Positions 48,480 through 64,000 of a stretch of 64,000 nucleotides of DNA are shown in pieces. Source of the DNA: a virus; the IMG/VR virus record IMGVR_UViG_3300032323_000716, positions 51,831-115,830 of that record. One strand, 5' to 3'. The position numbers and the translations under genes were made by a program. The notes below the pieces were generated by a model. The model saw only the letters and a list, made by a program, of their open reading frames with translations. It made no database searches and was not told the origin of the DNA. Every line of letters starts with the position of its first letter. The stretch's first letter is position 1.

Positions 48480-48700
48480 TAACTGTCCTTGATCTTCTTG
48501 AGTATGTTCTCACGTTCTAAACGATCTACTTCTGTTTGATATACGAAACGAATACCATATGCAAAGAACACCACAGCCCATGCTAGGCCTACCCATTCTA
48601 TGCCCAAGTAGTGAACAGCCACTGAGTTAGCAGCACCCAGCAGCAGTGCTGAGGTTGCAAATAAGACTGTGCGTTTTAGTGCTATTTGTTTTAGATTCAT
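48479..48700 (-). CDS. small membrane protein
   Basis: Two hydrophobic segments. Confidence 0.55.
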   Translation of the reverse strand: MNLKQIALKRTVLFATSALLLGAANSVAVHYLGIEWVGLAWAVVFFAYGIRFVYQTEVDRLERENILKKIKDS

Positions 48701-48701
48701 A

Positions 48702-48887
48702 TCAACTGTCCTTAACTAACTCTACACCAATATACATCAACATAAGGCTAGTCACTGTGACGCCAATTGAAGCAATCAGTTCTGAGGTATTCATGCTGGC
48801 TTCTACGCCGCCAACACCAAATCCTGCGCCCACAATGCCCGCAATCACTGCGATCATTCCCACTTTAACTTTGATTAATTCCTGCAT
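48702..48887 (-). CDS. small membrane protein
   Basis: Two hydrophobic segments, GAGAGCGA RBS. Confidence 0.55.
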   Translation of the reverse strand: MQELIKVKVGMIAVIAGIVGAGFGVGGVEASMNTSELIASIGVTVTSLMLMYIGVELVKDS

Positions 48888-48953
48888 CATTCGCTCTCTT
48901 TCTTTGTGTGTATGTGTCAATTATACTGTCAATTCGTTGAGTTGTCAACCAAA

Positions 48954-49274
48954 TTAACGAGGAATACGCACAACAATGCCCTGTGCTGTAGCCACAACTT
49001 CATAGCCCTTGTCTTCTAGAATGCTAACTGCCTGTTTAGAGATCGTTTTATCACGAGCAATTTGGCCTGCAATCTTTACAGCAATAAACTTCTTGCGATA
49101 GTTAATGTATGAGTTAGCATAAGCGTAGGCAGTGTCCAGAATGTCCAGGGCTCGTTGTGCTAGGCACTGCTGCTCCCTAGTGTATGTGCAGGCCATCTCT
49201 CTGTTGCGATAGTGTGCGTTGACTGCTGCTTTGTATGCGTTGTCTTCTGCTGATCGTGTGTTAAGTTGTTTCAT
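48954..49274 (-). CDS. hypothetical protein
   Basis: Own promoter and AGGAGCGC RBS. Confidence 0.6.
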   Translation of the reverse strand: MKQLNTRSAEDNAYKAAVNAHYRNREMACTYTREQQCLAQRALDILDTAYAYANSYINYRKKFIAVKIAGQIARDKTISKQAVSILEDKGYEVVATAQGIVVRIPR

Positions 49275-49328
49275 GTTGCGCTCCTGTTTGTGTATATGTG
49301 TTTATTATAAGGCCGCGAGCCCAAATGG

Positions 49329-49565
49329 TCAACCAAAATAGCGGAATAACCCGCCACAGCATACGGCGATTGCCACTGCGTTGATCAGCATCTGCGGACG
49401 GTTGTTAACACGCACAGTCCAGACGAAGAAGCAAACACCACCTAGCAATCCGAACACAATGTTCCAAGGATGCAGTTCGGGGAAGTAGCTCATGATCACG
49501 TACATGGCCAAGATGTTGGCTGTACCTAACCACTGGATTGTTTCGTCTATGTGTTTGTATGTCAT
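49329..49565 (-). CDS. small membrane protein
   Basis: Three hydrophobic segments; -10 box 6 nt upstream of ATG. Confidence 0.6.
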   Translation of the reverse strand: MTYKHIDETIQWLGTANILAMYVIMSYFPELHPWNIVFGLLGGVCFFVWTVRVNNRPQMLINAVAIAVCCGGLFRYFG

Positions 49566-49596
49566 GTAGTTATTATACGGTCATTTAGCCAAAATG

Positions 49597-49827
49597 TCAA
49601 CCATTTTTCGTGTTGCAGAATTGCCACATCTTTAACTCTGCGCCACGCAGTCCCAGCAGGACTCCCTCGAAGTCCCTGTAGGAGCAGCAGCCTACGATGT
49701 TTGGATATACTCTGTATCCATAGACCTCAACACTCTTTAGAGAGCGTGTGACCGCAGCCTTGGCGGGTCCTGGTTTGGTATAGTACTTGACCAGATTGCC
49801 GTCGTCATCGTAGGTAACCCAGCCCAT
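49597..49827 (-). CDS. hypothetical protein
   Basis: 76-aa coupled ORF. Confidence 0.55.
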   Translation of the reverse strand: MGWVTYDDDGNLVKYYTKPGPAKAAVTRSLKSVEVYGYRVYPNIVGCCSYRDFEGVLLGLRGAELKMWQFCNTKNG

Positions 49828-50063
49828 TAGTCTATGACCTTTACCACTTGATAGCCATAGATCTTCAACTTGCGGATTGCAGCCTGAATCTCTTGATGTG
49901 TGTCGTTGAGGTCATCTAAGCAGTTTTTAACTTCTTTCAAGTTGTCTGCTGTGCAGGTCTGACCTGAGTAGATATGACGGCACTCGTAGTAGCGGTCATC
50001 ATCATCTTGAATCAGTTGGTATGTGCCAAATGTCTTATAGACCGCGATTTCGCCTGCTTTCAT
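49827..50063 (-). CDS. hypothetical protein
   Basis: AAGGAGCGAACT RBS. Confidence 0.6.
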   Translation of the reverse strand: MKAGEIAVYKTFGTYQLIQDDDDRYYECRHIYSGQTCTADNLKEVKNCLDDLNDTHQEIQAAIRKLKIYGYQVVKVID

Positions 50064-50134
50064 AGTTCGCTCCTTTGTTGCTGGTGTAAATGTATTATAC
50101 GGTCTTTTGGATAGCCCGTCAACCCTTAGGGTCT

Positions 50135-50524
50135 TTATACGTTGTTTTTCTGCAACAGTCTGCTGCCGTTATCTTCGGAGATGATTAGGCGAACATTTGT
50201 AAGGTTTTCTTTGAGTCTGTCAATCAGTTGATCACGATCAATTCCCTGACCTAGGAACTGATTGTTGTCCAATCTGTAGGCATAGAGCATGCCGTGGACT
50301 TCTTCGATCTTGATCTCCATGGGAGTCAACGTGGATTCCTCAGCAGCATTCTGTGGATTCTCAGTGGTTAGATCGATGTCGTTATCGCGGGCTAACTTGC
50401 GCAGTTGCTGTTCCGTGACGCCCAAATCACGTAGGATCTCTCTGAAACTCAGGGCCATCCATGCTCGGCTCACGGCGGAACCTAACCAACAACCTACTAT
50501 GAATGCTATAATTAGTTCTATCAT
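50135..50524 (-). CDS. membrane-anchored hypothetical protein
   Basis: N-term hydrophobic helix; TATAAATA-N5-ATG. Confidence 0.6.
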   Translation of the reverse strand: MIELIIAFIVGCWLGSAVSRAWMALSFREILRDLGVTEQQLRKLARDNDIDLTTENPQNAAEESTLTPMEIKIEEVHGMLYAYRLDNNQFLGQGIDRDQLIDRLKENLTNVRLIISEDNGSRLLQKNNV

Positions 50525-50546
50525 ATGAATATTTATAGGTAGGGTT

Positions 50547-50580
50547 AAAAAAGAGGGTGTGGCTGTTATACCACACCCCC
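50547..50580 (-). terminator. rho-independent terminator containing TGT-N12-ACA palindrome
   Basis: GGGTGTGG...CCACACCC followed by T-run on minus strand. Confidence 0.75.
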
Positions 50581-50584
50581 AATG

Positions 50585-50618
50585 TACCCAGAACCAGGAG
50601 CGAACTGTTTACTGGGTA
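50585..50618 (-). ncRNA. candidate anti-RBS hairpin RNA 1
   Basis: Stem TACCCAG/CTGGGTA with apical AGTTCGCTCCTG, complementary to early-gene RBS. Confidence 0.5.
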
Positions 50619-50920
50619 ACTGCTGCTGCTGCCTTCGCGACAGTGGCTTTTGTTGCCTGCGGCTTGGCCACAGGATTCTTCTTGGCTACGTAAGTGATCG
50701 CGTCTGCGACTGCCTTACGGCCTTTTGCGAAATCAGTCTCAGTCAAATGCTGCGCGATTTCGCCTTTGGTCATCTCGCGGGGAAGATCCGCCAACTCGAT
50801 GTCTGTGTGGCCGTTCTTGGCCAAGATCTTGATGCGCATCACATCATTGGCAAAACGAATCTTAGTCTTACCATCTAGTGTTGAAACACCTGCTACTGCA
50901 AACTTTTTATCTGTTGCCAT
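50609..50920 (-). CDS. small basic protein with Lys/Ala-rich tail (putative nucleic-acid binding)
   Basis: 103 aa, C-term AKKNPVAKPQATKATVAKAAAA; own promoter; RBS lacks GGAGCGA. Confidence 0.6.
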   Translation of the reverse strand: MATDKKFAVAGVSTLDGKTKIRFANDVMRIKILAKNGHTDIELADLPREMTKGEIAQHLTETDFAKGRKAVADAITYVAKKNPVAKPQATKATVAKAAAAVTQ

Positions 50921-51000
50921 TTTGTTACCTCTTTATGTGTGTGTAAAATAAACTACTCGAGTTACTATTATAACATCGAACTTACCAAAGCGTCAACCAT

Positions 51001-51183
51001 TCATTTACCCAAATTAGACACTTGAATGGTTACCGCTTCTTTCTCGTCTAAGGCCGCGATAAACTCATCGTCAAAGACCAGATCCTGCATGTTCATGTCG
51101 ATCATCTGTTCGACACGAGCCAAATCACTGTCGCCGTCGCTGGCGCAGATGATCTCAAATTGAAATTTAAAGATTCTGGGCAT
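51001..51183 (-). CDS. hypothetical protein
   Basis: 60-aa ORF with AAGGAG RBS. Confidence 0.5.
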   Translation of the reverse strand: MPRIFKFQFEIICASDGDSDLARVEQMIDMNMQDLVFDDEFIAALDEKEAVTIQVSNLGK

Positions 51184-51460
51184 CTTCCCAAAACTCCTTG
51201 CGTAATTGAAACATCACTAACGCTTCCTCTTTAAGGTATACAGCACTCTTTTCAGAGTCCCAAGCCCAAACAGGTTGCACTCCATCGAAGTTCTCAGGTC
51301 GAGCCAATGCTTGCTCTGCTGATGGGCCAAACTGTGTCCAAAGCCAGTTGCGGACTCGAATCCACTGTTTGATCCTGACCTGTGGACCACCGTAGAACTC
51401 AACCCTATGCGTAAAGAAGCCATAGCCGTTGTAGTTGCGGTTCAGTTTGACCACATGCAT
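51167..51460 (-). CDS. hypothetical protein
   Basis: 97 aa, W..W..FGP motif. Confidence 0.55.
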   Translation of the reverse strand: MHVVKLNRNYNGYGFFTHRVEFYGGPQVRIKQWIRVRNWLWTQFGPSAEQALARPENFDGVQPVWAWDSEKSAVYLKEEALVMFQLRKEFWEDAQNL

Positions 51461-52089
51461 TATGCTACCACCAAACCTAACTTCTTGCGTTCTTCAACGC
51501 CTTCTGTGATCCAATCTGTGAGTTCTTCATCATCTTCTTGGAACTCACGGATGCCTTCGGAGATGCAGAACATTTCATCTAGATCGCTAGGGATAGTTGC
51601 TTCTACTTCATCGGCACTCATGTCACCGATCTCGTAGTAGTCATCACTGCCCTCTTCCCAAATACCACAGTAGGCCATGCCTGACTCATAGTAATAGGCA
51701 CGAACAGTGTAGCCCTGCTCGTAGAGTTCTTGATAGACTCCCTGTGGTGGGCTCCACGCTGAATCAAACGATGCAGTCATAGTCTTACCACTATCGGAAA
51801 CATCAGCCTGACTGTCGCCACCGCAGTCCCACTTAGTGCCCCAACGGCTGACCTGATAGTCATACCAGTCCTTGGCACCGTAGAGTTCAACATTGCGTTC
51901 CATCTGTGCTTCGTGTGCATCACGCTCTGGACCCTCAGGAACAGAACCTGACACTGTTTCTGTGAGATCCTTGGGTGTAGGAATCACATGACTGCAGAAC
52001 TCACCGTTATTCAAAGCATCTGCCAAAGCACGGATCTTCGCAGGATCTTCGTGGCTTATTTCTACAAAGTTGTTGCACCAATTAGGCAT
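51460..52089 (-). CDS. DUF1281/YubB-like ferredoxin-fold protein
   Basis: MPNWCNN, WYD...WGTKWD, FDSAWSPP, YYESGM. Confidence 0.7.
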   Translation of the reverse strand: MPNWCNNFVEISHEDPAKIRALADALNNGEFCSHVIPTPKDLTETVSGSVPEGPERDAHEAQMERNVELYGAKDWYDYQVSRWGTKWDCGGDSQADVSDSGKTMTASFDSAWSPPQGVYQELYEQGYTVRAYYYESGMAYCGIWEEGSDDYYEIGDMSADEVEATIPSDLDEMFCISEGIREFQEDDEELTDWITEGVEERKKLGLVVA

Positions 52090-52098
52090 ATTCGCTCC

Positions 52099-52284
52099 TT
52101 AATCGTAGTCAGCGGAACTCAATTCAACAGCACCTTCGATCTCGCTGTATAGATCGTAGATCTTCTGGACGATGATACGCTTCTGTCCAGGACGAACGGG
52201 CAGTTCTGACACCAGTTCTTCGATCTCATCCAATTTGGTATCGATGTCCTGGATAACCATATCTAGTTCACTCATCGCACTCAT
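52099..52284 (-). CDS. acidic helical hypothetical protein
   Basis: AGGAGAGCGA RBS, own promoter. Confidence 0.55.
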   Translation of the reverse strand: MSAMSELDMVIQDIDTKLDEIEELVSELPVRPGQKRIIVQKIYDLYSEIEGAVELSSADYD

Positions 52285-52294
52285 ATCGCTCTCC

Positions 52295-52483
52295 TTAGTA
52301 GATGTTAGTATTATACAACCGTTCATCCAAATTGTCAACCAAATTCTGTTCAATCTCTGTGGCGCTTTTGCCACAGATCTGTTCCATGGTCCTTAGAATC
52401 TTTCGCTGTGCCATGGGGGTAGTTTCAGGGGATTCCAAGGCTTCTACAGCCCGTTTGATATATTGGAACTCTTCTAGGGTCAT
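52295..52483 (-). CDS. hypothetical protein
   Basis: Coupled ORF whose C-term reads through next promoter. Confidence 0.45.
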   Translation of the reverse strand: MTLEEFQYIKRAVEALESPETTPMAQRKILRTMEQICGKSATEIEQNLVDNLDERLYNTNIY

Positions 52484-52776
52484 ACCGTCACCACCTTCCA
52501 TGGATCTACTTGGTCTGAATTCTTGATCTGTTTGGCCAACAGTTCGTTCTTTTGATTCTGTGCAGTGCGTAGCAGTTGCTCACGGATCTCTGCCCTGCGA
52601 GCCTTAGGCAGTTCAGAGATAACTTCTGCCAACACTGATGAGAAATAACCACAGGCGTAAGCATAGGAACCATCGCAGTTCTCACGTGAAGCCTGCTCGA
52701 CTTCGTTAATGGCGTTGCGAGTAGACCGGCTCTCGTCTAGGTATTCGTTAAACTTCTCTTGTGCTGATTTAGGCAT
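52480..52776 (-). CDS. hypothetical protein
   Basis: AGGAGAGCGA RBS, own promoter. Confidence 0.6.
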   Translation of the reverse strand: MPKSAQEKFNEYLDESRSTRNAINEVEQASRENCDGSYAYACGYFSSVLAEVISELPKARRAEIREQLLRTAQNQKNELLAKQIKNSDQVDPWKVVTV

Positions 52777-52813
52777 TTGTCGCTCTCCTTAGTATGTGTA
52801 TATTATAGCACCA

Positions 52814-53035
52814 CTAAACCAAATTGTCAACCGATTTGTAGTCTTTAACCATACGGTACAAAGGGTCAATTTCTTCCGAGTTTTCCAATTCAAAGTCATC
52901 GGAGAGCCAATCGATCCATTCCTCGAGGACAGGGCTGGCATCCCGGACCAACTCACGTGCTTCCTCCTCGGATTCTGCTTCTACCTGAAAGGTTTCAGCC
53001 ACGATGCTGTTGCGCCAGAATGTAAACTTTTTCAT
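52814..53035 (-). CDS. acidic hypothetical protein
   Basis: VEAESEEEARE motif. Confidence 0.55.
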   Translation of the reverse strand: MKKFTFWRNSIVAETFQVEAESEEEARELVRDASPVLEEWIDWLSDDFELENSEEIDPLYRMVKDYKSVDNLV

Positions 53036-53358
53036 ACAGACTCCACGTGCTTACAAGCACCACGGAACGTGAACCCCGGGCAGGTACAGGTCTTTTCCTC
53101 TACATTAACGTAGTAGGAATTGCCCTTAGACCCCTTGACTTCCACAGTTGCATTCTTGGCTGCATTCTTTGGGGATTTAAATGCTCCGGAGTCTGCTTTC
53201 TCAAACTTTCGGCCCCTCTTATCGAATCCTTTGATTCCTGATTTGAAATAGAAAGGATCCGTGGTGCCCTGCTTGATATAGGCAATCAAAGTAGTGCCAT
53301 CCAACAGGTAAACGTGGGGAGGAAACTGTCCCCCTGTGGTCTCACGCAGTGCTTCCAT
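53032..53358 (-). CDS. SWIM zinc-finger protein
   Basis: GSKGNSYYV...CTCPGF..RGACKH. Confidence 0.75.
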   Translation of the reverse strand: MEALRETTGGQFPPHVYLLDGTTLIAYIKQGTTDPFYFKSGIKGFDKRGRKFEKADSGAFKSPKNAAKNATVEVKGSKGNSYYVNVEEKTCTCPGFTFRGACKHVESV

Positions 53359-53624
53359 CAACGGTAATCCTTCTTGTCACCAAAACGCTCGTTGTAGTCG
53401 TAGCCCGCCATGTATTCAGCGATCTCGTCTTGGGTAAGGTTCTCTACAGGCTCACCTTGGTAGGACCCCATTGGATACCAATGAGGATCGCGTCTACGAC
53501 CGTAGTATGAGTCTGCTGATCCACGATCATACAGGCCACCGTGGCGCTTACGATCGAACTGTGGGCCTTTAAGGGCACGGATCACAGCCTTTTGTTCATC
53601 TTCAGTCATTAAATGTATATACAT
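53358..53624 (-). CDS. hypothetical protein
   Basis: HGGLYDRGSADSYY, EY.AGY motifs; AGGAGCGAA RBS. Confidence 0.6.
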   Translation of the reverse strand: MYIHLMTEDEQKAVIRALKGPQFDRKRHGGLYDRGSADSYYGRRRDPHWYPMGSYQGEPVENLTQDEIAEYMAGYDYNERFGDKKDYR

Positions 53625-53633
53625 CTTCGCTCC

Positions 53634-53801
53634 TTATTTCATTGGGCCGTTAAACAATCCACCTAGCGAACCAAAGGCAAACTTCCACTCTAGTTCACGG
53701 CGTTCTTCTGCAGTTGCGTTGGGGAACTCTTTACGCACAAAGTTCTGGATGTCTTTGAGGATAAGTCCTGCTACGTCTTTTGCTGGAATAATTGATGCCA
53801 T
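53634..53801 (-). CDS. hypothetical protein
   Basis: Start ATG53801 after AGGAGCGAAC. Confidence 0.55.
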   Translation of the reverse strand: MASIIPAKDVAGLILKDIQNFVRKEFPNATAEERRELEWKFAFGSLGGLFNGPMK

Positions 53802-53872
53802 TTGTTCGCTCCTTCTATTCACTATACCTATAGTATAACACCGAAAGTCCAAACTGTCAACCAAAAACTGCC

Positions 53873-54052
53873 TTAGCAGTCCGGGTCAAAACTAGCCCAC
53901 TCCTCTTGCTCCGTAGGCTGCCCGTCATCTGCATCAGCAGCCTCTGCTTCCAAACAGTAAACAACCTCTAGGATTTGGTTGCCCAAATAGTTCTTACCAG
54001 CAGCAAACAACACATCCGCTACCGCTTCCAACTGTTCAATTTCCTGTTGCAT
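53873..54052 (-). CDS. acidic hypothetical protein
   Basis: Start ATG54052; C-term DGQPTEQEEWASFDPDC. Confidence 0.55.
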   Translation of the reverse strand: MQQEIEQLEAVADVLFAAGKNYLGNQILEVVYCLEAEAADADDGQPTEQEEWASFDPDC

Positions 54053-54140
54053 AATTAACTCCTTATCGTTTACTATACCTATAGTATAACGCCAGTTGTC
54101 CAAAATGTCAACCAAAATAAAAGCCCTTTCGGGCTTAGGG

Positions 54141-54488
54141 TTAATCCAATCTTGATCCTGCGTAGGCTTCGAAGCCATACCTCTTGAACACCGCAGCAGC
54201 CGCAGCAGCCCCGGCCTCGAGTGTGTCCACGTTCTGGCAGCCGAATCCGCTGGGGTTATACATCTGCAGGCCGCCTGTGTATGAAGGACGAATATTGCAC
54301 TCTTTCAGTGCGCGGCCAATCTTTGTGTTACCTTTGACACCGTAGATGTTCACCCAGGCAAAGCCGCAGGCGAATTGATCCTTACCACCCAGGCGCATAT
54401 GGAAATACTCTGCTGCCGCAGCATACGCAGCAGTCTTGGCTTCGTTGACAATTGCTGGGATCTGCTCAGGGGTTGCTGTGATAGTCAT
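54141..54488 (-). CDS. hypothetical protein
   Basis: CGFAWV and C-term SRLD motifs; AGGAGCGAA RBS. Confidence 0.6.
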   Translation of the reverse strand: MTITATPEQIPAIVNEAKTAAYAAAAEYFHMRLGGKDQFACGFAWVNIYGVKGNTKIGRALKECNIRPSYTGGLQMYNPSGFGCQNVDTLEAGAAAAAAVFKRYGFEAYAGSRLD

Positions 54489-54566
54489 CTTTCGCTCCTT
54501 TGTGTTAAACAATACCCATAGTATAGCACCATGGGTATCAAATGTCAACCAAAATGTAGAAAGACC

Positions 54567-54893
54567 CTAGTGGCGTCTGGGTTGCTTTAGCAGTTCCGCT
54601 TCTTTACGCAGTCTGCCGGCCTGTTTATACATCTCGTCGGCACTCCTGCGCAGTTCTTCGGCCCGAGCCTGGCTGAGACTGGTCCCACCGAACTCACGTG
54701 AAATGTAGTAGTCAACGAGACGGTTCTTGATCATAGTAGGCAGATTGTCGCCGTGATCTTCAGGTACGATAAAGCGAACAGGGCAATGACCCCATCCGCC
54801 TTTTTCTATGTATTCTGCATAATAGCGTCTATGATCCTTGTTAGTTGGATCAAACGCCACTAAAGGACGCATTAGATATTCTAATCTGCTCAT
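54567..54893 (-). CDS. hypothetical protein
   Basis: FDPTNKDHR, WG.CPVRF; TATAAATA-N6-ATG. Confidence 0.6.
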   Translation of the reverse strand: MSRLEYLMRPLVAFDPTNKDHRRYYAEYIEKGGWGHCPVRFIVPEDHGDNLPTMIKNRLVDYYISREFGGTSLSQARAEELRRSADEMYKQAGRLRKEAELLKQPRRH

Positions 54894-54894
54894 G

Positions 54895-55068
54895 TCAACT
54901 ATTTATAGTGTTAAATGGGTCACAGTCCATGACATAGCAGGCCTCGGGCTGATCACTGACTACTTCTTTAATAGTCTCTTTGATATCCTGCCAGTCTGCG
55001 TCTTCGTCCATGAGCACACCGTCTTCGTCATAGAAAGGATCTTCAAACAACATTCCGAATCCACTCAT
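54895..55068 (-). CDS. small acidic protein (57 aa)
   Basis: Manual translation MSGFGMLFEDPFYDEDG...DPFNTINS; coupled to upstream ORF. Confidence 0.45.
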   Translation of the reverse strand: MSGFGMLFEDPFYDEDGVLMDEDADWQDIKETIKEVVSDQPEACYVMDCDPFNTINS

Positions 55069-55190
55069 TTAACGGTCTCCTTCATGACTTCTTGGGTTTT
55101 ACCTACGGCCTTATCAATGGCGTTTGCTACTCCGGTAACGCCTACAGTGGCCACGAACATACCTGCTACGAATGCAAGAAGAACTTTCAT
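55065..55190 (-). CDS. small membrane/secreted peptide (41 aa)
   Basis: MKVLLAFVAGMFVATVGV...; AGGAGCGA RBS. Confidence 0.55.
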   Translation of the reverse strand: MKVLLAFVAGMFVATVGVTGVANAIDKAVGKTQEVMKETVK

Positions 55191-55200
55191 ATATCGCTCC

Positions 55201-55293
55201 TTAACCTACAAAGATCCAATAAGAACCTACAGCCACCGCATAGACAGCGACAGCGTAGCCCAGTTGCTTTACATCTTCTAACAGCCAATCCAT
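55201..55293 (-). CDS. small membrane peptide (30 aa)
   Basis: MDLAVRRCKQLGYAVAVYAVAVGSYWIFVG; AGGAGCG RBS, own promoter. Confidence 0.45.
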   Translation of the reverse strand: MDWLLEDVKQLGYAVAVYAVAVGSYWIFVG

Positions 55294-55402
55294 ATACCGC
55301 TCCTTCCTTACCATATGTATATTATACGATCAATCTACCCAGTTGTCAACCGCCTCTTAGCAGCGGGGTCAGTGGCTAAAAAGCCACACCCGCCGGCACT
55401 CG

Positions 55403-56596
55403 TCAAGCGGACTCTGTTTCCTTCTCGTAGATCACAGTCTGACCAAAGGGTGCTTCTGCTTGTGTATTACCCTTGACGATAAAGATTGTATCGCAGTAGT
55501 CCTCGTTGCCCCAACCACCACAAGGGTAGCCGTCTGTGAACATAATGAACTTCTTAGGCTGGATACCGTTCTCTTCCATGAATGTCCAGTTGACTTCGAA
55601 GTCTGTGCCACCACCGCCCATAGGTTCGTAGTTAAGCAGGTCCTCACTGTTGTCGTGTGTGATTCTTTGGAAGTTATAGATCTCTGTGTCAAAGCACCAT
55701 AGGCTAATAGCAAAGTCCTCGTACTGGTCCATGATGCCCTTGATCTCTGAAAGAAATACAGTTGCATCCTCTTCACCAATAGAACCTGACATATCAATAG
55801 AAACGGCCACGTCAATAGTAGTTGCTTCTTTCATGCCCGGAAGGATTGCGCCACTGTGCATACTCTTACGGTTAGGGCGTGTAAAGGAGTAGTCGTTGCG
55901 GATGATGCTTTGGATCTCTTGACGAACAAGAGTGCGCCAGTCCATCTTAGGCTCAGTCAATGACTTGATCATACGCATAATGCCTGCGGGAGTCTTACCT
56001 GCACCAGCGGCCGCGGCACTCTGGATCATAGCCTGCTTGATCTCATCACGGATCTTCTGTGCTTCCTCTTTGCTCATAGTGGGCTTCTTGCCATCACCCT
56101 CTTCACCAGGAGCACCCTCTTTGATATGCTCGTCCAGCAGTTCACCGATCTGCTTGAGCAGTTCAGGCATACTGATCTTCTCTGCTTTCTCATAGAGATC
56201 ATCGTAGATCTCTTCCCAGGCCATACCACGGTATTTGCTGTCTAAGCAGATCTTAACTTCAGTGATCTTCTCACCAATACGCTCATCTACGAGGATCTGG
56301 TTGACTGCAAAGTCCTGTGCGATATTAGACAGTTGACGATCACGGCTACCAACACGACCGAAGTGATCTAGGATACAGTGGAGGATTTCGTGTGCGAACA
56401 AGAACTCTAGTTTCTTAACGCTGAGTTTCTCTACGAATTTTGTAGAATAATAAAAGTCACGGCCGTTAGTTGCGGCGGTTGGGCACCAGTCATCTGCTCT
56501 GACCAGTTTCATACGAGTTGCCATGTTGCCGAAGAACGGCGCCTTGAGCAGTAGGCCTACTCGTGCAGTTGTTAGTTTCTCTACGATTGGATCCAT
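55403..56596 (-). CDS. metallopeptidase-like + vWA domain protein (DUF2201-type)
   Basis: TAATNG, HEILH zincin motif, DMSGS MIDAS, GGGTDF, FTDG. Confidence 0.85.
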   Translation of the reverse strand: MDPIVEKLTTARVGLLLKAPFFGNMATRMKLVRADDWCPTAATNGRDFYYSTKFVEKLSVKKLEFLFAHEILHCILDHFGRVGSRDRQLSNIAQDFAVNQILVDERIGEKITEVKICLDSKYRGMAWEEIYDDLYEKAEKISMPELLKQIGELLDEHIKEGAPGEEGDGKKPTMSKEEAQKIRDEIKQAMIQSAAAAGAGKTPAGIMRMIKSLTEPKMDWRTLVRQEIQSIIRNDYSFTRPNRKSMHSGAILPGMKEATTIDVAVSIDMSGSIGEEDATVFLSEIKGIMDQYEDFAISLWCFDTEIYNFQRITHDNSEDLLNYEPMGGGGTDFEVNWTFMEENGIQPKKFIMFTDGYPCGGWGNEDYCDTIFIVKGNTQAEAPFGQTVIYEKETESA

Positions 56597-56652
56597 TAGT
56601 CGCTCTCCTTACTATGTATATATTATAGCACCTTCAGGCACCCTTGTCAACC

Positions 56653-56687
56653 AAAAAAAAAGGGTGTTGCGTTTCCACAACACCCCC
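56653..56687 (-). terminator. rho-independent terminator containing TGT-N12-ACA palindrome
   Basis: GGGTGTTG...CAACACCC plus T9 on minus strand. Confidence 0.8.
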
Positions 56688-56703
56688 TGCTATGGGCGAG
56701 GTC

Positions 56704-57789
56704 TTAATTCTCCATAGCACTGAGAACATACTTGCCGAACCGCTTGTGGAACTCGTCGAACGAGTCCATCTTAGTTGCATCCAACGGCAAGTTGTAATTA
56801 GTAAGGGCAGTCTTGGCACCCATCACTACCAACTCTGTTGGGAAGTTCTGCATCATATACTGGAAGAAGCGATCAGCCATTGCATCCCAACCTTTGACCT
56901 TCTTCTCTGCACGATCCTTCAACTCATAGCAAAGGCTAACTGTCAAAGAATACATCGCAGACACTTCCTTGATCTGCAGGTCCTTGACCTTACCATCGAG
57001 GATGTCATCTGCCTTAGGCAGTTTACCAGCGATCTTACGGTGAGCCATGAACTTATTGCCCAAGCCATCACCAACGGCACCCGCGATCAAGTTCTGCAGG
57101 GTATCGTTATCAACATCGTCGTCAGTGAGCAGATCACTGACAAAGCACCATGAACGAGGAGTTGCAAACGCCTTAGACGCTGACTTAGGATCAAAGTCGT
57201 AGAGGTCTTGCTTGGCAAAGCCTACATAACCTACAACCTCAGGGTGGATCTTGTTGAGCGTAGCCCAATCTTGCCAGTCATCAAAGTCCACTTTCATTTC
57301 CAAGTGAACGAAGCGGTTAGCCAACGGAGCAGGCATACGATAGGTAACACCACGGTCACCTTCACGGTTACCAGCGGCGACCACGTCAACGCCCTTAGGC
57401 AATACATAGGTGCCTACTCGACGGTTAAGGATCAACTGATAGGCCGCGGCCTGAACAGCCGGAGGAGCAGAGTTCAACTCATCCAAGAAGATGATAGCAG
57501 TAGACTCTGGGTCCATAGGCAGTTCGCTTGGGGGAGCCCAAACCATCTTGCCCTGCTCTGAGTTGTAATAAGGGATACCTTTAATGTCAGTAGGTTCCCA
57601 AAGGGCTAGGCGAACGTCAATGACTTCGCGACCTGCGTCATCACCGATCTGCTTGACGAGATCGGATTTACCAATGCCTGGAGGGCCCCACAAGAATGCA
57701 GGACGGCGAACTGCCAGGGCTTTACGGATTGCCTTTTTGGCTGACTTAGGGCCAACTTGGCGGACGGAAATATCAGTGCTCTTGCTCAT
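56704..57789 (-). CDS. MoxR-like AAA+ ATPase
   Basis: GPPGIGKS, FLDELN, AAGN, PLANRF, TPRSW. Confidence 0.9.
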   Translation of the reverse strand: MSKSTDISVRQVGPKSAKKAIRKALAVRRPAFLWGPPGIGKSDLVKQIGDDAGREVIDVRLALWEPTDIKGIPYYNSEQGKMVWAPPSELPMDPESTAIIFLDELNSAPPAVQAAAYQLILNRRVGTYVLPKGVDVVAAGNREGDRGVTYRMPAPLANRFVHLEMKVDFDDWQDWATLNKIHPEVVGYVGFAKQDLYDFDPKSASKAFATPRSWCFVSDLLTDDDVDNDTLQNLIAGAVGDGLGNKFMAHRKIAGKLPKADDILDGKVKDLQIKEVSAMYSLTVSLCYELKDRAEKKVKGWDAMADRFFQYMMQNFPTELVVMGAKTALTNYNLPLDATKMDSFDEFHKRFGKYVLSAMEN

Positions 57790-57865
57790 TAAGACCTCGC
57801 TTTAAAAAATTAAACTAACTATCAATCTCTCAGTGTTAATAGTATAACACCAACCGGTTCATTTG

Positions 57866-58501
57866 TCAACCGATGATTTTCACAAAATTTAACTGTGTTG
57901 TTTTATTGCCACGTTGTTGCTTGACCTTGCCCTTGATACGGACTGTGCCTTCTAGGGCGGAACTGAACCAGAAATCAATGATGCTTTCTCCCATACGGGC
58001 ATCGATCTTGTGCTTTTGATACTCGTTGCTGAATCGTGTGCGGATCACTTGGATTTCGCCTACGATCACATCCCCAGGCTGCCCCTGCAGTTGCTCTGAA
58101 GTGAAGATCTCACGTTTGAGTTCAGTCTGTGCTTGATCGCGTCTGGCCACATCAGGCAAGCAGCCTATCACAGCAAAGTCGTACATATCCTTGCCAGTGA
58201 ACTCTTCTTTGGTAGCGATACGCATAGCAGTCTGCTGGAACTCGTTGAGTTGTCCTGAGATAGCCTTAAAGGTATAGGTTTTGAAATGATCCCGGGCGCA
58301 GCGTCCTGCAGCGATATCTGATTCTGTGGCGATGTTTAGGGTACCTTCACGCAGCCATGTCTTGATCATGACTTTGTTAGGACGCTTTATGGGATTCTTT
58401 TGATCCACTTCGAAGTTCCAAACATCTTCCTTGATGTAGCCACCGTTGATACGATCGGCTGCAACAGCCAGGCCCCATACTTGATCTGCAGTGAAGTTCA
58501 T
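57866..58501 (-). CDS. hypothetical protein (possible C-terminal OB fold)
   Basis: Start ATG58501 after AGGAGCGAAC; IKGKVK...TQLNFVK C-term. Confidence 0.55.
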   Translation of the reverse strand: MNFTADQVWGLAVAADRINGGYIKEDVWNFEVDQKNPIKRPNKVMIKTWLREGTLNIATESDIAAGRCARDHFKTYTFKAISGQLNEFQQTAMRIATKEEFTGKDMYDFAVIGCLPDVARRDQAQTELKREIFTSEQLQGQPGDVIVGEIQVIRTRFSNEYQKHKIDARMGESIIDFWFSSALEGTVRIKGKVKQQRGNKTTQLNFVKIIG

Positions 58502-58599
58502 TGTTCGCTCCTTCATAATGTACTTATTATACGATCTCTAGCCCAATCTGTCAACCGGAGGAGTGCCGGCGGGTGTGGCGAAAATACAACACTAGGACC

Positions 58600-58630
58600 A
58601 AAAAGAAAGGCCGCATATAGCGACCTTTCT
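58600..58630 (-). terminator. rho-independent terminator
   Basis: AGAAAGGTCGC-TATAT-GCGGCCTTTCT-TTTT on minus strand. Confidence 0.75.
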
Positions 58631-58668
58631 CAAACTCCGCCCCGGGAGCGAATCGGCTTGGAATTTGA
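58630..58668 (-). ncRNA. candidate anti-RBS hairpin RNA 2
   Basis: Stem TCAAATTCC/GGAGTTTGA, inner CCG/CGG, loop ATTCGCTCC complementary to early-gene RBS. Confidence 0.5.
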
Positions 58669-58679
58669 AGGGGGTTTAC

Positions 58680-58955
58680 TTAAACAGTAATGCCCATTGC
58701 CTTGGCTTTGTAACCAAGAGCAACGATTTCACGGCTTGGCATGCCCAACTCATACTCAGTAACAGTAACGCCATTACCTGCTGTGCGAGTGTTGCTGTAA
58801 ACAGCATAACCGTTTTGACGGATGCGGCTTGCTTCAGCGGCCAAGTTCTTAACACCGAAACGCTTGCTGGCTTCTGCTTGTGTCAACTTGTCACCAGACT
58901 TGAGTGCTGTAAAAACCTTGAATGTCTTTGTTTCTTTAGAAAATGTATATTTCAT
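58680..58955 (-). CDS. small basic winged-HTH-like protein
   Basis: LT..EA..RFGV.NL.A..S.IR..GY pattern followed by beta-wing; RBS lacks GGAGCGA. Confidence 0.6.
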   Translation of the reverse strand: MKYTFSKETKTFKVFTALKSGDKLTQAEASKRFGVKNLAAEASRIRQNGYAVYSNTRTAGNGVTVTEYELGMPSREIVALGYKAKAMGITV

Positions 58956-59046
58956 TTGAATGTTTCCTTTAAATTTAAAGCTGATAAAATGTTATTCAGC
59001 GTCCGTTAATTATAGCAACCTTGCGATCTAAATGCAACCATCAAGA

Positions 59047-59238
59047 TTACCGTTTTACCTTGACACTGGGTCCAATCAAAGAACCCAGGATCAAAGCGGC
59101 TGCCCACGTCCAAAATGTGTAGGGGATAGCCAACACAGGGAACAGGGTGTTCAGGGCCCAAATAGTCAGCAACGGACCCAGAATGATGAGGAATAGGATT
59201 AGTGCCACTATCCCTAGAAATTTAACGACTGTGCCCAT
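59047..59238 (-). CDS. small membrane protein
   Basis: Highly hydrophobic, start ATG59238. Confidence 0.6.
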   Translation of the reverse strand: MGTVVKFLGIVALILFLIILGPLLTIWALNTLFPVLAIPYTFWTWAAALILGSLIGPSVKVKR

Positions 59239-60338
59239 TAGTAGGCTCCTTTCATAACAGTGACCTTGGCCATGTTCTGCCAATTAGCAGGGAAACTCTT
59301 ACGCAGATCTGCTACTTTCAGTACAGTACGCAATGACAGTTCACGCATAGTACCACGGTGATCATTGATGAATTTAACTACCTCGTCCTTGGCAATGTCT
59401 TCTAACTCGTATGAGTCCAACATGCCGTCCTTAACGATCTGCTGGATACGCAGGATCTTCTCGCGATCTGTGTCCATGCGCAGGTCGATATAATGACAGC
59501 GTGACTCTAAGGCACTCAGGTGATCCTGCAGTTTCTTAGAACGCACATTCTCAAACTTCAAGTTTGTGATAAAGATAGCACCACCCTTGAACTCAAACTT
59601 GTCCGGGATACCTTCGCTACGCAGGAGTCGCGAGTCCGTGTTCCACGAGATAGTACGCTTCTTAGAACTGTCCAAAGCGGCCTTAAGGATGTTAAGCGCA
59701 ATGTCGTCCAAAAGAATGCTGTCGCAGTCATCGAACACAAGGATGTTCTTAGCGTCTGAGAACTGATAGAGTTTTGAGTACAAGCCAATGGCACTCATAG
59801 CACCCTTGACGATCTCATAGCGTGGCTTACGCTCGCCCAAGGTGTTAAACAGGTCGTCTTTGGCAAGTACTTCTTCAACACCAAACGACTTACCCACACC
59901 TGGAGGGCCTGTGACGATCATAGCACGGACATCGCCTGCTTTCACAGCCTTGGTCATGTCCTTGAGGATCTCAAAGCGCATACGGGTACGCTCAATGATC
60001 TCTTCGTCAGTTTCGTGTGCTACAGCCTCGTCTGAGACTTTGATCTGTGTAAAGTCCGTGATCTCGGCACCCTTGACAGTTTTAGATTTCAGTGCAGTCA
60101 GCATGCTTACTCCTTGAGGGATGGGTTTAGCAGAACCCGCGACATTGTAAGCACCCTGCTCACAACGGATACGGATTGAACGATCTGGGAAACCGGGCTG
60201 GCTACCGCCCTCTACAGTGACATAGCCTTCGCCACCCTTAGAAACTTTGAAGTCTTCTACTAGTTTAAAGGTCATGCCTGCAACATTAGTAGGCTGGCCC
60301 TTAATGTTGTAATAGCCCTCTGTGAAAGTAATATACAT
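59238..60338 (-). CDS. AAA+ / P-loop ATPase
   Basis: GPPGVGKS, VFDDCD, FITN, SRC; start ATG60338 after AGGAGCGAAC. Confidence 0.8.
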   Translation of the reverse strand: MYITFTEGYYNIKGQPTNVAGMTFKLVEDFKVSKGGEGYVTVEGGSQPGFPDRSIRIRCEQGAYNVAGSAKPIPQGVSMLTALKSKTVKGAEITDFTQIKVSDEAVAHETDEEIIERTRMRFEILKDMTKAVKAGDVRAMIVTGPPGVGKSFGVEEVLAKDDLFNTLGERKPRYEIVKGAMSAIGLYSKLYQFSDAKNILVFDDCDSILLDDIALNILKAALDSSKKRTISWNTDSRLLRSEGIPDKFEFKGGAIFITNLKFENVRSKKLQDHLSALESRCHYIDLRMDTDREKILRIQQIVKDGMLDSYELEDIAKDEVVKFINDHRGTMRELSLRTVLKVADLRKSFPANWQNMAKVTVMKGAY

Positions 60339-60424
60339 CTGTTCGCTCCTGTGTATGTTCATCATTCTATTATTATAATGCCAATGCTCGCAATTGTCAA
60401 CCACTAACCCTATGCCCTGTAGGG

Positions 60425-60844
60425 TTATTCTTCTTCTGCTGTTAGGTGCTCAACGGTGTTTTGGGCTAGGGCATCGGACAGCAGTACCAAACCCCCTTTG
60501 ATCAAGCCGGGCACATCGTAGACGGCACCCACGTACCACTCCCCGTCCTTCATCACGTAGTAATACTCACCGTGACAGCCTTCAACCTGCTCGAGGAACT
60601 CTTCAAAGGTATGTGCCACTGAGTAGCCCACGTTCTCTTCGCCGCGATCTGTGTAGAAGTTCATTTCCTCTACAGTCTCTTTGACACCACTGTTGTCCCC
60701 ACGTGCAACTAGGGCATTGGCCTTCACTGAGTCATAGTGTTTGTGCAGCAATTCACCGGTGTATTCCAAATAGCCATCGTAGTGGCAGTAGACGCTTTTG
60801 CAGACTGTGCCATGCATGACACCCACTCGTGAACGTGTACCCAT
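60425..60844 (-). CDS. hypothetical protein
   Basis: MGTRS, YCHYDGY, EYYY motifs. Confidence 0.6.
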   Translation of the reverse strand: MGTRSRVGVMHGTVCKSVYCHYDGYLEYTGELLHKHYDSVKANALVARGDNSGVKETVEEMNFYTDRGEENVGYSVAHTFEEFLEQVEGCHGEYYYVMKDGEWYVGAVYDVPGLIKGGLVLLSDALAQNTVEHLTAEEE

Positions 60845-60899
60845 TTCGTCGCTCCTTTGTTAAACAATAAGTCTATTATACTGCCAAAATAAAGCCCTG

Positions 60900-61292
60900 T
60901 CAACCCCACTGGGCTTCGAAGGCTGCTTCCTGTTCCTGCAGCATAGCAGCAAGATCTACGCCAAACTTGGCACTCCAAGCCTTGAGGAACTTTTTGCCCA
61001 CATCGCAGGAAACGTAGTCGTCGCCCTGCATGCCCTGCTCGCTGTAGGAAACATCTGAGCCCTGCAGGCCGTGTGTGTCCAGGAACTGCCTAAGTTCGCT
61101 GATGAACTGTTTGTCCGTGTAGATCAGACCCTGCTTGTTAACATCCCACGAGTCTGTGTGGAAATAGACACGTAGTTCACCAAAGTCCAGTTCATCGCTG
61201 ATATAGCCCAGACGCATGTCTGTGATACGTACAGCCTGTTCTGTGTTAGACCAATAGCCGCCACCGCCTGTGTGCATGATAACTTCTGACAT
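60900..61292 (-). CDS. hypothetical protein
   Basis: GLIYTD, YSEQGMQG motifs. Confidence 0.6.
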   Translation of the reverse strand: MSEVIMHTGGGGYWSNTEQAVRITDMRLGYISDELDFGELRVYFHTDSWDVNKQGLIYTDKQFISELRQFLDTHGLQGSDVSYSEQGMQGDDYVSCDVGKKFLKAWSAKFGVDLAAMLQEQEAAFEAQWG

Positions 61293-61302
61293 TGCTTGCT
61301 CC

Positions 61303-61662
61303 TTAACTGCTTTTGATAGTCAACATTGTAAACTGTTTTGCCAAATAGGTCAACCGATCTTTGGCCTCTACCATGGCATCTAGTACTAGATCTTCGCCCA
61401 CGTCGCTGAGGCTGTCTTTGGCATCTTCATAGAGCATGCCCCCGCAGCAGGCTGAGCCCAACTCTACACCTTCTGCTATGACCCTAGCACGTAACACAAA
61501 CCAGTCTAGATCCCCACGATCGATCTTAGCGCACATGTCTGCGATGTCGTAGGCACTGTCGTCAAAACAGTCGTTGGGATGTACGTCTTCCCAGGTCTTG
61601 TCTAAGACCACTACGAACCCTTCCTGCTCGCGTTCTAACAGTGTGTCCCAGTGTCTTTGCAT
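61303..61662 (-). CDS. hypothetical protein
   Basis: AGGAGCGAACT RBS. Confidence 0.6.
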   Translation of the reverse strand: MQRHWDTLLEREQEGFVVVLDKTWEDVHPNDCFDDSAYDIADMCAKIDRGDLDWFVLRARVIAEGVELGSACCGGMLYEDAKDSLSDVGEDLVLDAMVEAKDRLTYLAKQFTMLTIKSS

Positions 61663-61714
61663 AGTTCGCTCCTATGTTGAATTAGCGAGGGCTCTCTCGT
61701 TGGCCCTCTCCACG

Positions 61715-61912
61715 TTACTGCTTAGGTGCAAACATCCGTCTGCCTGCTGCCATAAACATATTATACGCTACTCTGTCCTCTTTGTCAAGATCATCGTAGC
61801 AGAATTCCATGTCTTTTAAGCCCGCTAGGATGTCACCCCCAGTGTGCAGTTCAGCATAGTTCTGCACTAGTGTGCAGGCATCTCCTAGTTCCATGTACAA
61901 GGGTGTACCCAT
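61715..61912 (-). CDS. hypothetical protein
   Basis: 65-aa coupled ORF. Confidence 0.55.
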   Translation of the reverse strand: MGTPLYMELGDACTLVQNYAELHTGGDILAGLKDMEFCYDDLDKEDRVAYNMFMAAGRRMFAPKQ

Positions 61913-62229
61913 TATATGCCTCTCTTGTCAGTGTTGTAAAAAGGGTTCTGTTCGCGGATTAATTCACGCTCACGTGTGTGTGCAGCCTGCTTGCCGCGGA
62001 TGATCTCAAGCACACGAACATCAATGTCTTCTTTGCTCTCATAGCCGCGTAGCAGTTCGCACAGAGTCCAGGACTTGGTCTCACGTTGCGCACGATACCA
62101 GTGCTTGGCCATTCGGCTACGAACGCTCTTTAATACAGTAGTTTCAGTCTTGGCCGTAACGCCAATGTATACGCCCTCAGGACCCTGTATTTGGTATATG
62201 ATGTGATTGCGATCGTTTCGTTTCTTCAT
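61912..62229 (-). CDS. GIY-YIG nuclease domain protein
   Basis: IIY...YIGVT, R..H, E..LI, N motifs. Confidence 0.7.
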   Translation of the reverse strand: MKKRNDRNHIIYQIQGPEGVYIGVTAKTETTVLKSVRSRMAKHWYRAQRETKSWTLCELLRGYESKEDIDVRVLEIIRGKQAAHTRERELIREQNPFYNTDKRGI

Positions 62230-62371
62230 ATTAGTATTATACGATCACAGCACCAATCTGTCAACCAAACGGATCAAAACCCTAGTCAGAGTAGGGTTAT
62301 CCAAACTGTAGCCAAAATGCCACAGCCTAGGCACTCTCCTTCTGTGCCAGGTCAGTTAGTGCTTACTAACC

Positions 62372-62485
62372 CTATTTCGTGACCCAAAGAATGATCGCGA
62401 CCGCAGCAAGGAAGATCCCGAGAAAGATCCCACACTGCTGCAGAGTTGTGGTACGTGCCCAGATGCTAGTGTGTTGATCGTTCAT
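62372..62485 (-). CDS. small membrane peptide (37 aa)
   Basis: Manual translation MNDQHTSIWARTTTLQQCGIFLGIFLAAVAIILWVTK. Confidence 0.4.
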   Translation of the reverse strand: MNDQHTSIWARTTTLQQCGIFLGIFLAAVAIILWVTK

Positions 62486-62526
62486 TGCTGCTGTTTCCTT
62501 TCCCTGCTGCTGTTGTGCTGCTGTTA

Positions 62527-62601
62527 TGGCCCGGCGACTAGGAATCGAACCTAGATTGACGGCTTAGAAGGCCGCTGTATTATCCATTATACTATCGCCA
62601 G
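62527..62601 (-). tRNA. tRNA-Arg(TCT)
   Basis: Cloverleaf, acceptor CTGGCGA/TCGCCGG, anticodon loop CT-TCT-AA, GGTTCGATTCC, encoded CCA. Confidence 0.92.
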
Positions 62602-62605
62602 ATTC

Positions 62606-62683
<78 letters not shown>

Positions 62684-62689
62684 CAAATA

Positions 62690-63025
62690 TTACTGCTGCT
62701 GTTGCTGCTGCTGGTGTTCTAGTAGATCTTGTTCCACTTCCTCCGCCATGCGCTGCTGCATGTCATGTTGCTTGACCATCTTATATAATGGATCCAAACG
62801 TTTGACAAACACATTAGGCGCTGATTCTGCTGCACGATCCAGATCAAAGGTTCCGGGATAGTGACGCAGCAATGATCGTGCTTCTTCGCGAACTGCCTTG
62901 GGCACACGGGCATAATGCCCACCCGCTAGTCGCTGCAAAAACAGTTCAGTGTGCCTAACTGCACGGTATCTTTCATCTGGTAATGTCAACTCTCTGCTCC
63001 TAGATAACAGCCTTTTCTTCTGCAT
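62690..63025 (-). CDS. hypothetical protein with poly-Gln tail
   Basis: TLPDERYRA, RVPK.VR..A..LLRHYP motifs. Confidence 0.6.
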   Translation of the reverse strand: MQKKRLLSRSRELTLPDERYRAVRHTELFLQRLAGGHYARVPKAVREEARSLLRHYPGTFDLDRAAESAPNVFVKRLDPLYKMVKQHDMQQRMAEEVEQDLLEHQQQQQQQ

Positions 63026-63063
63026 GTGTGTATTATACTGTCAACTGCTAGTATAGTCAATAC

Positions 63064-63616
63064 CCTACAGCGGGGCCTTAGCCTTTTTTGGATAACTGCC
63101 ACAGAGTTCTTGTGGTGTGTCCCCTAGCACATAGATCAAAGTATTTGTGTGCTAGGCTGTGACTGGTAGTAGAGATCACCACATGCCCTCTGTGATCATA
63201 GACAGTATACATATAGACTGTGTTGCGCAACTCTGATCTTAGTGTAACATACAGTGACATCTATTATTTAAACTCATATCCTACAGCGGGGCCACCGTGT
63301 ATACACAGTTTTTACGGTCCAGGACGCTACTTCTAAGGTGGATTATGGTGGTTCTATGGTGGTGAAATGGTGGAATCCGAATCGTTTGAGCAGAGTCTAG
63401 ATAAATTTGTAGGCAAAAATTTTTCTCTAGAGTGGTGGCACGAGAGGCATAGTTCAAATACCACACAATTTCACACTTTTCTGCACTTTTCCACACCCTT
63501 TTGACCATCCCACCATGCATACAGGCCTCTATACGCATCTAAGGGATCAGTAAATCACACTTACTGAGTGTTTTTACACATATACGCACACATACACACT
63601 ATCCTGCAGCGGGGCC
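63064..63616. repeat. three copies of 14-bp CCT(A/G)CAGCGGGGCC
   Basis: 63064-63077, 63280-63293, 63603-63616. Confidence 0.8.
63078..63260 (-). CDS. hypothetical protein
   Basis: 60 aa, TAAATA-N4-ATG. Confidence 0.4.
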   Translation of the reverse strand: MSLYVTLRSELRNTVYMYTVYDHRGHVVISTTSHSLAHKYFDLCARGHTTRTLWQLSKKG

Positions 63617-63740
63617 TTGTACTGTACTGATCACTCAACTACACTTTTTACTATAAAGAATACTACTACTATGACTGTCACAGTCAATGCCCATGCTGTC
63701 ATTGCTGAGTTCCTTATTGCTCTAAGGTCATCATCTCTGA

Positions 63741-63992
63741 TCATTCTATGCTCTCTGTTTCTATAGTATCTTCTTGTATACAGTAAGTAGCATCTATAAC
63801 AGTACCATCCGTTAACTCACAGCGTTCTATTTCACAGTTATCTATATTAATTCTCTCGAGGCGAAGCCCGAAGCCCAATCGCGAGTTACGAGCACGTTGG
63901 GCGATTCTTGCGCCAGCAAGAGTCTTATAGTAACGCAATCGTTCTAGAGTATCTTTATGTGTAAGAAAGTATACTGTACGTACTTCTGCCAT
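63741..63992 (-). CDS. hypothetical protein
   Basis: 83-aa ORF, YKTLAGARIA motif. Confidence 0.55.
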   Translation of the reverse strand: MAEVRTVYFLTHKDTLERLRYYKTLAGARIAQRARNSRLGFGLRLERINIDNCEIERCELTDGTVIDATYCIQEDTIETESIE

Positions 63993-64000
63993 TGTGTTTA

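Follow-up and report, generated by a model that had tools for sequence, protein, structure and literature searches.

A putative anti-Shine-Dalgarno element at the 3' end of an early ATPase mRNA of a giant phage

The mRNA of an early AAA ATPase gene of a giant phage probably carries at its 3' end a cis-acting anti-Shine-Dalgarno (anti-SD) element which, in a way similar to icaR, closes the ribosome-binding site (RBS) of the complete transcript. The complementarity of both ends, its conservation and covariation in relatives, a hairpin that displays the element and the predicted fold are what we have observed or computed. Self-regulation through pairing of the 5' and 3' regions is known in few natural bacterial mRNAs (icaR, hbs and hok), and the comparative support found here is unusually strong, with dozens of natural double mutants and a stop codon that covaries with the spacer of the Shine-Dalgarno (SD) sequence. 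This stop-codon covariation, the display hairpin and, in the relatives, a further private contact that links the 5' end with the terminator loop are new features, and the fixed geometry ties initiation to termination. With ~100 nt of control sequence, the element provides a compact model to study the silencing of completed transcripts, whether terminating ribosomes reopen masked starts, and also how giant phages meter an early AAA ATPase under a near-consensus promoter.

The ATPase gene and its complementary ends

The window, that is the whole stretch of DNA analyzed, comprises the last 64 kb of a viral record of 116 kb. As this record is estimated to be only 33% complete, the source virus is a giant phage. 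The gene (56704..57789) and the rest of its transcription unit are located on the minus strand. It is an ORF of 361 aa with the ATG at 57789-57787 and a TAA stop at 56706-56704, and it encodes a MoxR-type AAA+ ATPase, with matches to AAA_5 and AAA_3, besides a weak one to bpMoxR, and to the PHROGs family phrog_1297 ('ATPase'). A consensus scan found a sigma-70-type promoter (57841..57869) with the structure TTGACA-17-(TG)TATACT, an 11/12 match with a TG extension, whose -35 box contains the TGA stop of the upstream ORF. The transcript presumably starts at A57834 (ACUGAGAGA...), 7 nt past the -10 box, leaving a 5' leader at 57801..57834; this start was deduced from the -10 spacing, and the transcript ends from consensus motifs. 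The scan and the fold also indicate an intrinsic terminator (56650..56688), a G+C-rich hairpin of 12-13 bp with its loop in the GGAAAC region followed by U9; by the scan, the hairpin proper takes up 56688-56659, with the U-run next to it. Promoter and terminator bracket the two arms described below, which therefore belong to a single transcription unit, as a preliminary description of this DNA had stated.

In the early region (46000-64000, minus strand) there are at least 20 near-perfect sigma-70 promoters within 18 kb, nearly one per small early gene, and 11 of them match TTGACA-17-TATAAT at 12/12. The location of the TGA stop of an upstream ORF inside the next -35 box (GGTtgaCA) recurs there, e.g., at 57866, 60900, 49597, 49329 and 54895. 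Two adjacent tRNA genes, tRNA-Met (CAU) and tRNA-Arg (UCU), are found at 62527-62683, also on the minus strand. The ATPase is followed by a gene (55403-56596, minus) that has its own promoter and the domains DUF2201_N + DUF2201 (VWA-like); the PHROGs label 'HNH endonuclease' (phrog_1314) that it receives looks doubtful for that domain pair. Many neighbouring early genes carry the tag AGGAG(AG)CGA at their RBS. Comparison of the RBSs of the region bears out the earlier claim that the ATPase gene is different, its RBS being unlike this tag and the AGGAGCGA type of its neighbours.

The 5' arm, GCGAGGUCUUAAU (57788..57800), consists of the SD (GAGG) and the spacer, and reaches two bases into the AUG; on the DNA of the minus strand it reads GCGAGGTCTTAAT (57800-57788), directly before and at the ATG. 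The 3' arm, or anti-SD, is AUUAAGACCUCGC (56696..56708; DNA of the minus strand ATTAAGACCTCGC, 56708-56696), and runs across the stop codon TAA (56706-56704). It spans from -2 to +10 of the stop, so that the 3' UTR contributes 8 of its 13 nt and the stop codon 3. Direct reading of the sequence confirms that both 13-nt arms are exact reverse complements, separated by 1079 nt. In an inverted-repeat search the arms grow to 28 nt (56696-56723 / 57773-57800; 82%), the second-longest inverted repeat of the window. The extension is in register, giving 13 bp, an internal loop of 7 nt and another 8 bp (AGCACUGA / UCAGUGCU), with the 5' side of these 8 bp in codons 4-6 (57773..57780) and the 3' side in the region of the Ser-Ala codons (56716..56723), where it shares bases with the 5' arm of the display hairpin.

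The window has 4 perfect inverted 13-mers with both copies within 2.5 kb, compared with 3.3 +/- 2.2 in block shuffles, so that the bare 13-mer repeat is not above chance. What makes it real, in our view, is that the extension keeps the register, that the arms coincide with SD and stop and, most importantly, that relatives conserve the pairing. In the whole 116-kb record the motif GAGGTCTTAA is confined to the two arms and, among the ~47 minus-strand ORFs at 46-64 kb, a strong duplex with the own 3' end was found in the ATPase gene alone. Pairing of this kind as a general habit of early genes was considered and rejected, as the only other ORF with a low value has a TTG start that is implausible. 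The Rfam covariance models gave no match with E <= 1 at 55000-59000 on either strand.

Pairing of both ends in the relatives

The search for related loci provided 80 viral contigs, 61 of them with distinct pairs of 5' and 3' end sequences. A tree of the coding sequences, in which both ends were left out, separated with 100/100 support a clade of 46, with 80-92% aa identity to the window, from a clade of 15, with 70-74%. When the 23 nt around the RBS were compared with the whole locus of ~7 kb, the best partner was the stop region in 32 of the 46 loci (mean z -3.9) and in none of the 15 of the sister clade. In the clade of 46, perfect complementarity ran at its longest for a median of 10 nt (range 6-13), versus 4 in 7301 control windows, and this stretch overlapped the stop codon in 40 of these loci.

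We tested 20 pairs in an alignment of the full mRNAs. Standard pairs made up 85.5% of the cells versus 31-46% with the partners slid, changes on both sides appeared in 45 cells (a number reached by 0/500 shuffles) and the covariation score was 0.182 versus 0.121 shuffled and 0.02-0.06 slid, values that undercount covariation since lineages with indels in the anti-SD fall out of register in this alignment. The 5' and 3' ends of the same locus paired with -16.8 kcal/mol, compared with -13.9 kcal/mol for ends coming from different loci, and 0/5000 permutations matched this value.

The individual replacements are very diverse. The basal locus L058 has the compensated helix GGGGGUUU/AAACCCCC; another variant is GGGGUCUUA/UAAGACCCC, with a G.U intermediate in L056, and GGAGAGGUCA/UGACCUCUCC, AGAGGUUA/UAACCUCU and UGGAGGUC/GACCUCCA are each found in a separate lineage of the tree. 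The change from GCGAGG/CCUCGC to ACGAGG/CCUCGU appears in two separate clades, and the same helix is also found converted into GGAGG/CCUCC and UGGAGG/CCUCCA; AGAGG/CCUCU and ACUGGAG/CUCCAGU are further compensated versions. Even the stop codon covaries with the spacer between SD and AUG, UAA going with UUA, UAG with CUA in two lineages (L030; L049/L053) and UGA with UCA (L046). The anti-SD is displaced 3-6 nt beyond a new TGA stop in L052, L037 and L054/55, and in L002 it is located 18-27 nt past the stop, out of reach of a terminating ribosome. Given the many compensated variants, that of the basal locus included, the pairing appears to be ancestral to the clade of 46 while its sequence has turned over. 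These data strongly support that the pairing between SD and stop region is under selection, being conserved or compensated in the relatives. The preliminary description had proposed a cis version of an anti-RBS logic and regarded compensatory changes at both ends of homologous loci as its check; many such changes, specific to lineages, are found across the 46 contigs, and together with the folding they strongly support the long-range pairing of RBS and stop region.

The pairing was looked for, and is absent, in the 15 contigs of the sister clade and in the cultured phages PA5oct (51% aa identity) and Sinorhizobium phage Phosso (41%). In the sister clade (L062-L080) the homologous ATPase genes have a ribosome site of the GAAAG type and end directly in a GGCCC...GGGCC terminator; anti-SD, display hairpin and ACUGAGA start motif are missing there. 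As the sister clade has none of its parts, the whole 5'-3' apparatus seems to be a derived trait of one clade.

The anti-SD is presented in the window by a local structure. The isolated 3' end folds as an 8-bp hairpin (56688..56719; z -4.4), with the terminator immediately after, in which the stem UGCUAUGG / CCAUAGCA pairs the last codons (Ala-Met-Glu) with the first bases of the 3' UTR and encloses a loop of 16 nt containing the stop codon and the anti-SD. Position 3 of the Ala codon covaries in the relatives with its partner in the 3' UTR (UA 14, AU 11, CG 8, GC 4). Besides, the stem contains 13 G.U versus 3 A.C in the alignment rows that have the anti-SD in the same register as the window and, since G.U well exceeds A.C, the display hairpin is probably an RNA structure of the sense strand. 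A YUNR U-turn in its loop was considered and dropped as uninformative, because every stop codon with a pyrimidine before it conforms to YUNR. The covariation of the Ala third base is with the 3' arm of this local hairpin and not with the start region, for which reason we regard the 8-bp extension as specific to a lineage and rejected it, together with the AUGGC/GCNAU pairing, as a conserved element. Wobble counts were also rejected as proof that the long helix acts at the RNA level; they are uninformative, with G.U 2 and A.C 15, the latter mostly at the fraying ends, so that the argument for RNA rests on the display hairpin and the turnover of the sequence.

Most relatives have a second contact between both ends. 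In 42 of 45 the predicted transcript begins with ACUG(A/G)GA, 7 nt past the -10 box, and in 38 of these 42 the loop of the terminator hairpin is complementary to it: ACUGAGA goes with UCUCAG in 32 and ACUGGGA with CCCAG in 6. One further locus has a G.U and none an A.C, and the G/C form is found at four or more places of the coding sequence tree. Both motifs are private to the ATPase unit (35/39 and 42/44 of their occurrences in 270 kb), and as a transcript start ACUGRGA is private to the ATPase gene of the relatives. An example is found in locus L017, between L017:2950-3000 and L017:4115-4125. Furthermore, in 11 loci CUGAGAA is repeated just 5' of the SD, which gives a bipartite and colinear match to the two 3' loops. 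In the window the 5' motif is kept (57828-57834) and the terminator loop is different, with UCUCAGU found instead in the last codons; the motif of the terminator loop appears to have been lost here.

Predicted folding, mechanism and alternatives

Folding of the 1184-nt transcript starting at A57834 gave a minimum free energy (MFE) structure that contains the long-range helix, with pair probabilities of 0.97-1.0. Of the 5' fragments folded, with lengths up to 1110 nt, most gave the SD a predicted probability of ~0.3-0.4 of being unpaired and that of 250 nt one near zero; in the full transcript it was 0.00. The preliminary description had held that only nascent transcripts are translated, which seems a reasonable inference from this behaviour of the model. 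Among the relatives, the MFE structure of the whole mRNA has the helix between SD and stop in 12 of 24 diverse loci of the close clade and in 0 of 10 of the sister clade, i.e., the helix is not always the predicted thermodynamic winner. Seen in only 12/24 relatives, it lends weak support when taken from whole-mRNA MFE, which we did not accept as proof of pairing.

We infer the masking of initiation, its timing, the effect of termination and the action in cis rather than in trans, and the mechanism would run as follows. On the nascent 1.18-kb transcript SD and AUG would be accessible and ribosomes could load; coupled transcription and translation could allow many of them to do so before closure. 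When the last ~90 nt have been made, the last codons and the first bases of the 3' UTR would form the local hairpin, whose loop would present 10-13 nt, stop codon included, complementary to SD, spacer and edge of the AUG. Pairing of loop and SD, over 13 + 8 bp in the window, would shut the RBS. The full 13-bp helix is impossible within a loop of 16 nt while the stem is closed, and either the pairing remains partial or the hairpin has to open. Nucleation between loop and SD followed by opening of the display hairpin is the likely path, and the opening would free the 5' arm of the hairpin and let the 8-bp extension form in the window, since this extension uses part of that arm. The complete message would then take no new ribosomes and may become a substrate for RNases, as in icaR. 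For icaR, too, an mRNA open during its synthesis and shut on completion has been argued (PMC3868564), and the proposal agrees with the effects of distal anti-SD-like sequences in vivo (PMC12697547). A helix of 13 + 8 bp with an internal loop would be of a plausible size for cleavage by RNase III. The predicted outcome is a self-limiting burst of protein per transcript, starting from a near-consensus early promoter, in which the output of each transcript would be limited without dependence on mRNA decay.

The position of the stop codon adds a further element, which the preliminary description had left aside. The helicase of the ribosome works ~11 nt 3' of the P-site codon (Takyar et al. 2005, as cited in PMC12697547). 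A ribosome placed on the stop codon would cover nearly all of the anti-SD and would have to melt the helix; as the stop codon is inside the anti-SD and within the ribosome footprint, each terminating ribosome should reopen the site, and permanent closure would come only once ribosome traffic lapses. Tentatively, the element may thus be a ribosome-gated switch, in which the terminating ribosome melts the helix of stop and spacer, the freed start can be briefly reloaded, and shut-off becomes irreversible when traffic lapses. In most relatives the second clamp, between the 5' ACUGAGA and the terminator loop UCUCAG, would keep both ends joined in the meantime. If true, the mRNA of a dsDNA phage would contain a per-transcript burst counter, or a prokaryotic closed loop that relays termination to re-initiation. 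Opening coupled to termination does not seem to be universal, since the anti-SD of L002 is beyond the reach of the terminating ribosome.

Action in trans is an unlikely alternative to the closing of the RBS in cis. A small RNA derived from the 3' end, or the 3' end of one mRNA, would in that case pair with the RBS of other copies and produce a delayed negative feedback. An anti-SD in a hairpin loop beside a terminator is the usual anatomy of 3'-derived sRNAs (for the class, PMC6393394), and for icaR cis and trans were not separable (PMC3868564). The window itself provides a similar case. The 3' UTRs after the ORFs 50920-50609 and 58955-58680 (~50585-50605 and ~58625-58660, minus strand) hold UUCGCUCC, with hairpin loops UUCGCUC, and UUCGCUCC is the complement of GGAGCGAA, a ribosome-site tag common to many early genes of the window. 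These hairpins, being complementary to a shared early RBS, must act in trans. The ATPase element, in contrast, matches only its own, differently built RBS, which is the only target in 116 kb (the record being ~33% of the genome). Overlap with the stop codon is near-constant (40/46) and would have no role in a trans mechanism, no internal promoter or processing site was identified, and pairing in cis, with the two partners in the same molecule, should be kinetically favoured. Cis is the better fit to the overlap with the stop codon and to a single target within 116 kb, and the anti-RBS hairpin logic of this phage group would come in a private cis form and a shared trans form.

We consider it rather improbable that the end-to-end pairing serves mainly the stability of the mRNA, with little effect on translation, by shielding the 5' region and the 3' end from ribonucleases of the host or the phage. 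This is what the hbs mRNA would suggest, where a 14-bp interaction between 5' and 3' UTR inhibits endonucleolytic cleavage of the leader (PMC5737220), and the covarying contact between 5' end and terminator loop of the relatives (32 + 6 loci, one G.U) would hide the 5' end. However, the conserved partner is precisely SD and spacer rather than a generic segment of the leader, the window itself is devoid of the contact between 5' end and terminator loop, and masking of the SD normally lowers initiation and destabilises the mRNA (PMC12697547). Much less credible still is an inverted repeat acting at the DNA level, as operator or recombination sites recognised by a protein and flanking the gene, or a repeat due to chance. 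The chance frequency of the bare 13-nt repeat in the window would agree with it, and the wobble statistics of the long helix say nothing in either direction. Nevertheless, the helix sequence is almost wholly different between lineages while the complementarity is kept, and a protein site on DNA would conserve the sequence and not the complementarity. Besides, one arm is always the SD and the other is always in the loop of an RNA hairpin rich in G.U, and gene order and position are constant. An antisense gene using the mirrored SD was also examined and rejected: in the window the plus-strand frame running over the 3' arm stays open for 148 codons, but it is not conserved, with very variable lengths and a stop within 4-5 codons in 9 of the 46 relatives.

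Comparison with known systems

Long-range masking of the RBS has been argued to be common and hard to find (PMC12697547). In reporters of Bacillus subtilis, the RBS pairs in vivo with anti-SD-like 8-mers placed hundreds of nt further downstream, which inhibits initiation and favours decay, and anti-SD-like sequences are depleted in natural genes (Gill et al. 2025, preprint, PMC12697547). Those were synthetic substitutions, whereas the phage anti-SD is actively conserved at a constant position, suggesting that it is used and not accidental. The literature searched contains no report of an element of this kind in the mRNA of a dsDNA phage, and this is weak evidence of absence.

The fold-back inhibition of hok had been put forward as the model for this gene in the preliminary description. 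In the hok mRNA of plasmid R1 a stem between 5' and 3' elements (tac/fbi) locks the fold, another box, located upstream, masks the SD, and slow trimming of the 3' end activates the mRNA (PMC9841398). The likeness holds for the pairing of both ends over a long distance, and full-length hok mRNA is translationally inert, so that translation is limited in time. It fails for the wiring, as the 3' element of the phage pairs with the SD itself and not with an element of the tac type, and an indirect masking of the SD such as that of hok was not found. The stable terminator hairpin located 3' of the phage anti-SD would also hinder simple trimming. Finally, hok comprises a toxin ORF and an antisense RNA, Sok, while the phage product is a 361-aa AAA ATPase with no antisense partner seen.

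The hbs mRNA of B. subtilis is similar in having a long-range pairing of ~14 bp between the two UTRs of one mRNA that affects the access of ribonucleases. There the pairing protects the mRNA and overlaps an RNase Y site of the leader (Braun et al. 2017, PMC5737220); unlike the pairing proposed here, it is not a mask of the SD.

In icaR of Staphylococcus aureus, an anti-SD in the 3' UTR blocks the formation of the initiation complex and creates a site for RNase III (Ruiz de los Mozos et al. 2013, PMC3868564). As in the phage, the anti-SD at the 3' end of the mRNA complements that mRNA's own SD region, and there too the choice between cis and trans was left open (PMC3868564). The properties that characterize icaR and that we find in the phage element are an anti-SD at the 3' end of the same transcript and a pairing that is conserved or compensated in relatives. 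The motif of icaR, UCCCCUG, is deep in a 3' UTR of ~390 nt (PMC3868564), while the phage element includes the stop codon and is located in the loop of a partly coding hairpin directly before the terminator, and its relatives add the second contact of the 5' end with the terminator loop. The gene here is an early one of a phage, and its support is comparative (covariation, 46 contigs) while that of icaR is experimental. With these differences, hok resembles the phage element in outcome and not in wiring, hbs resembles it in geometry, and icaR is the closest known system.
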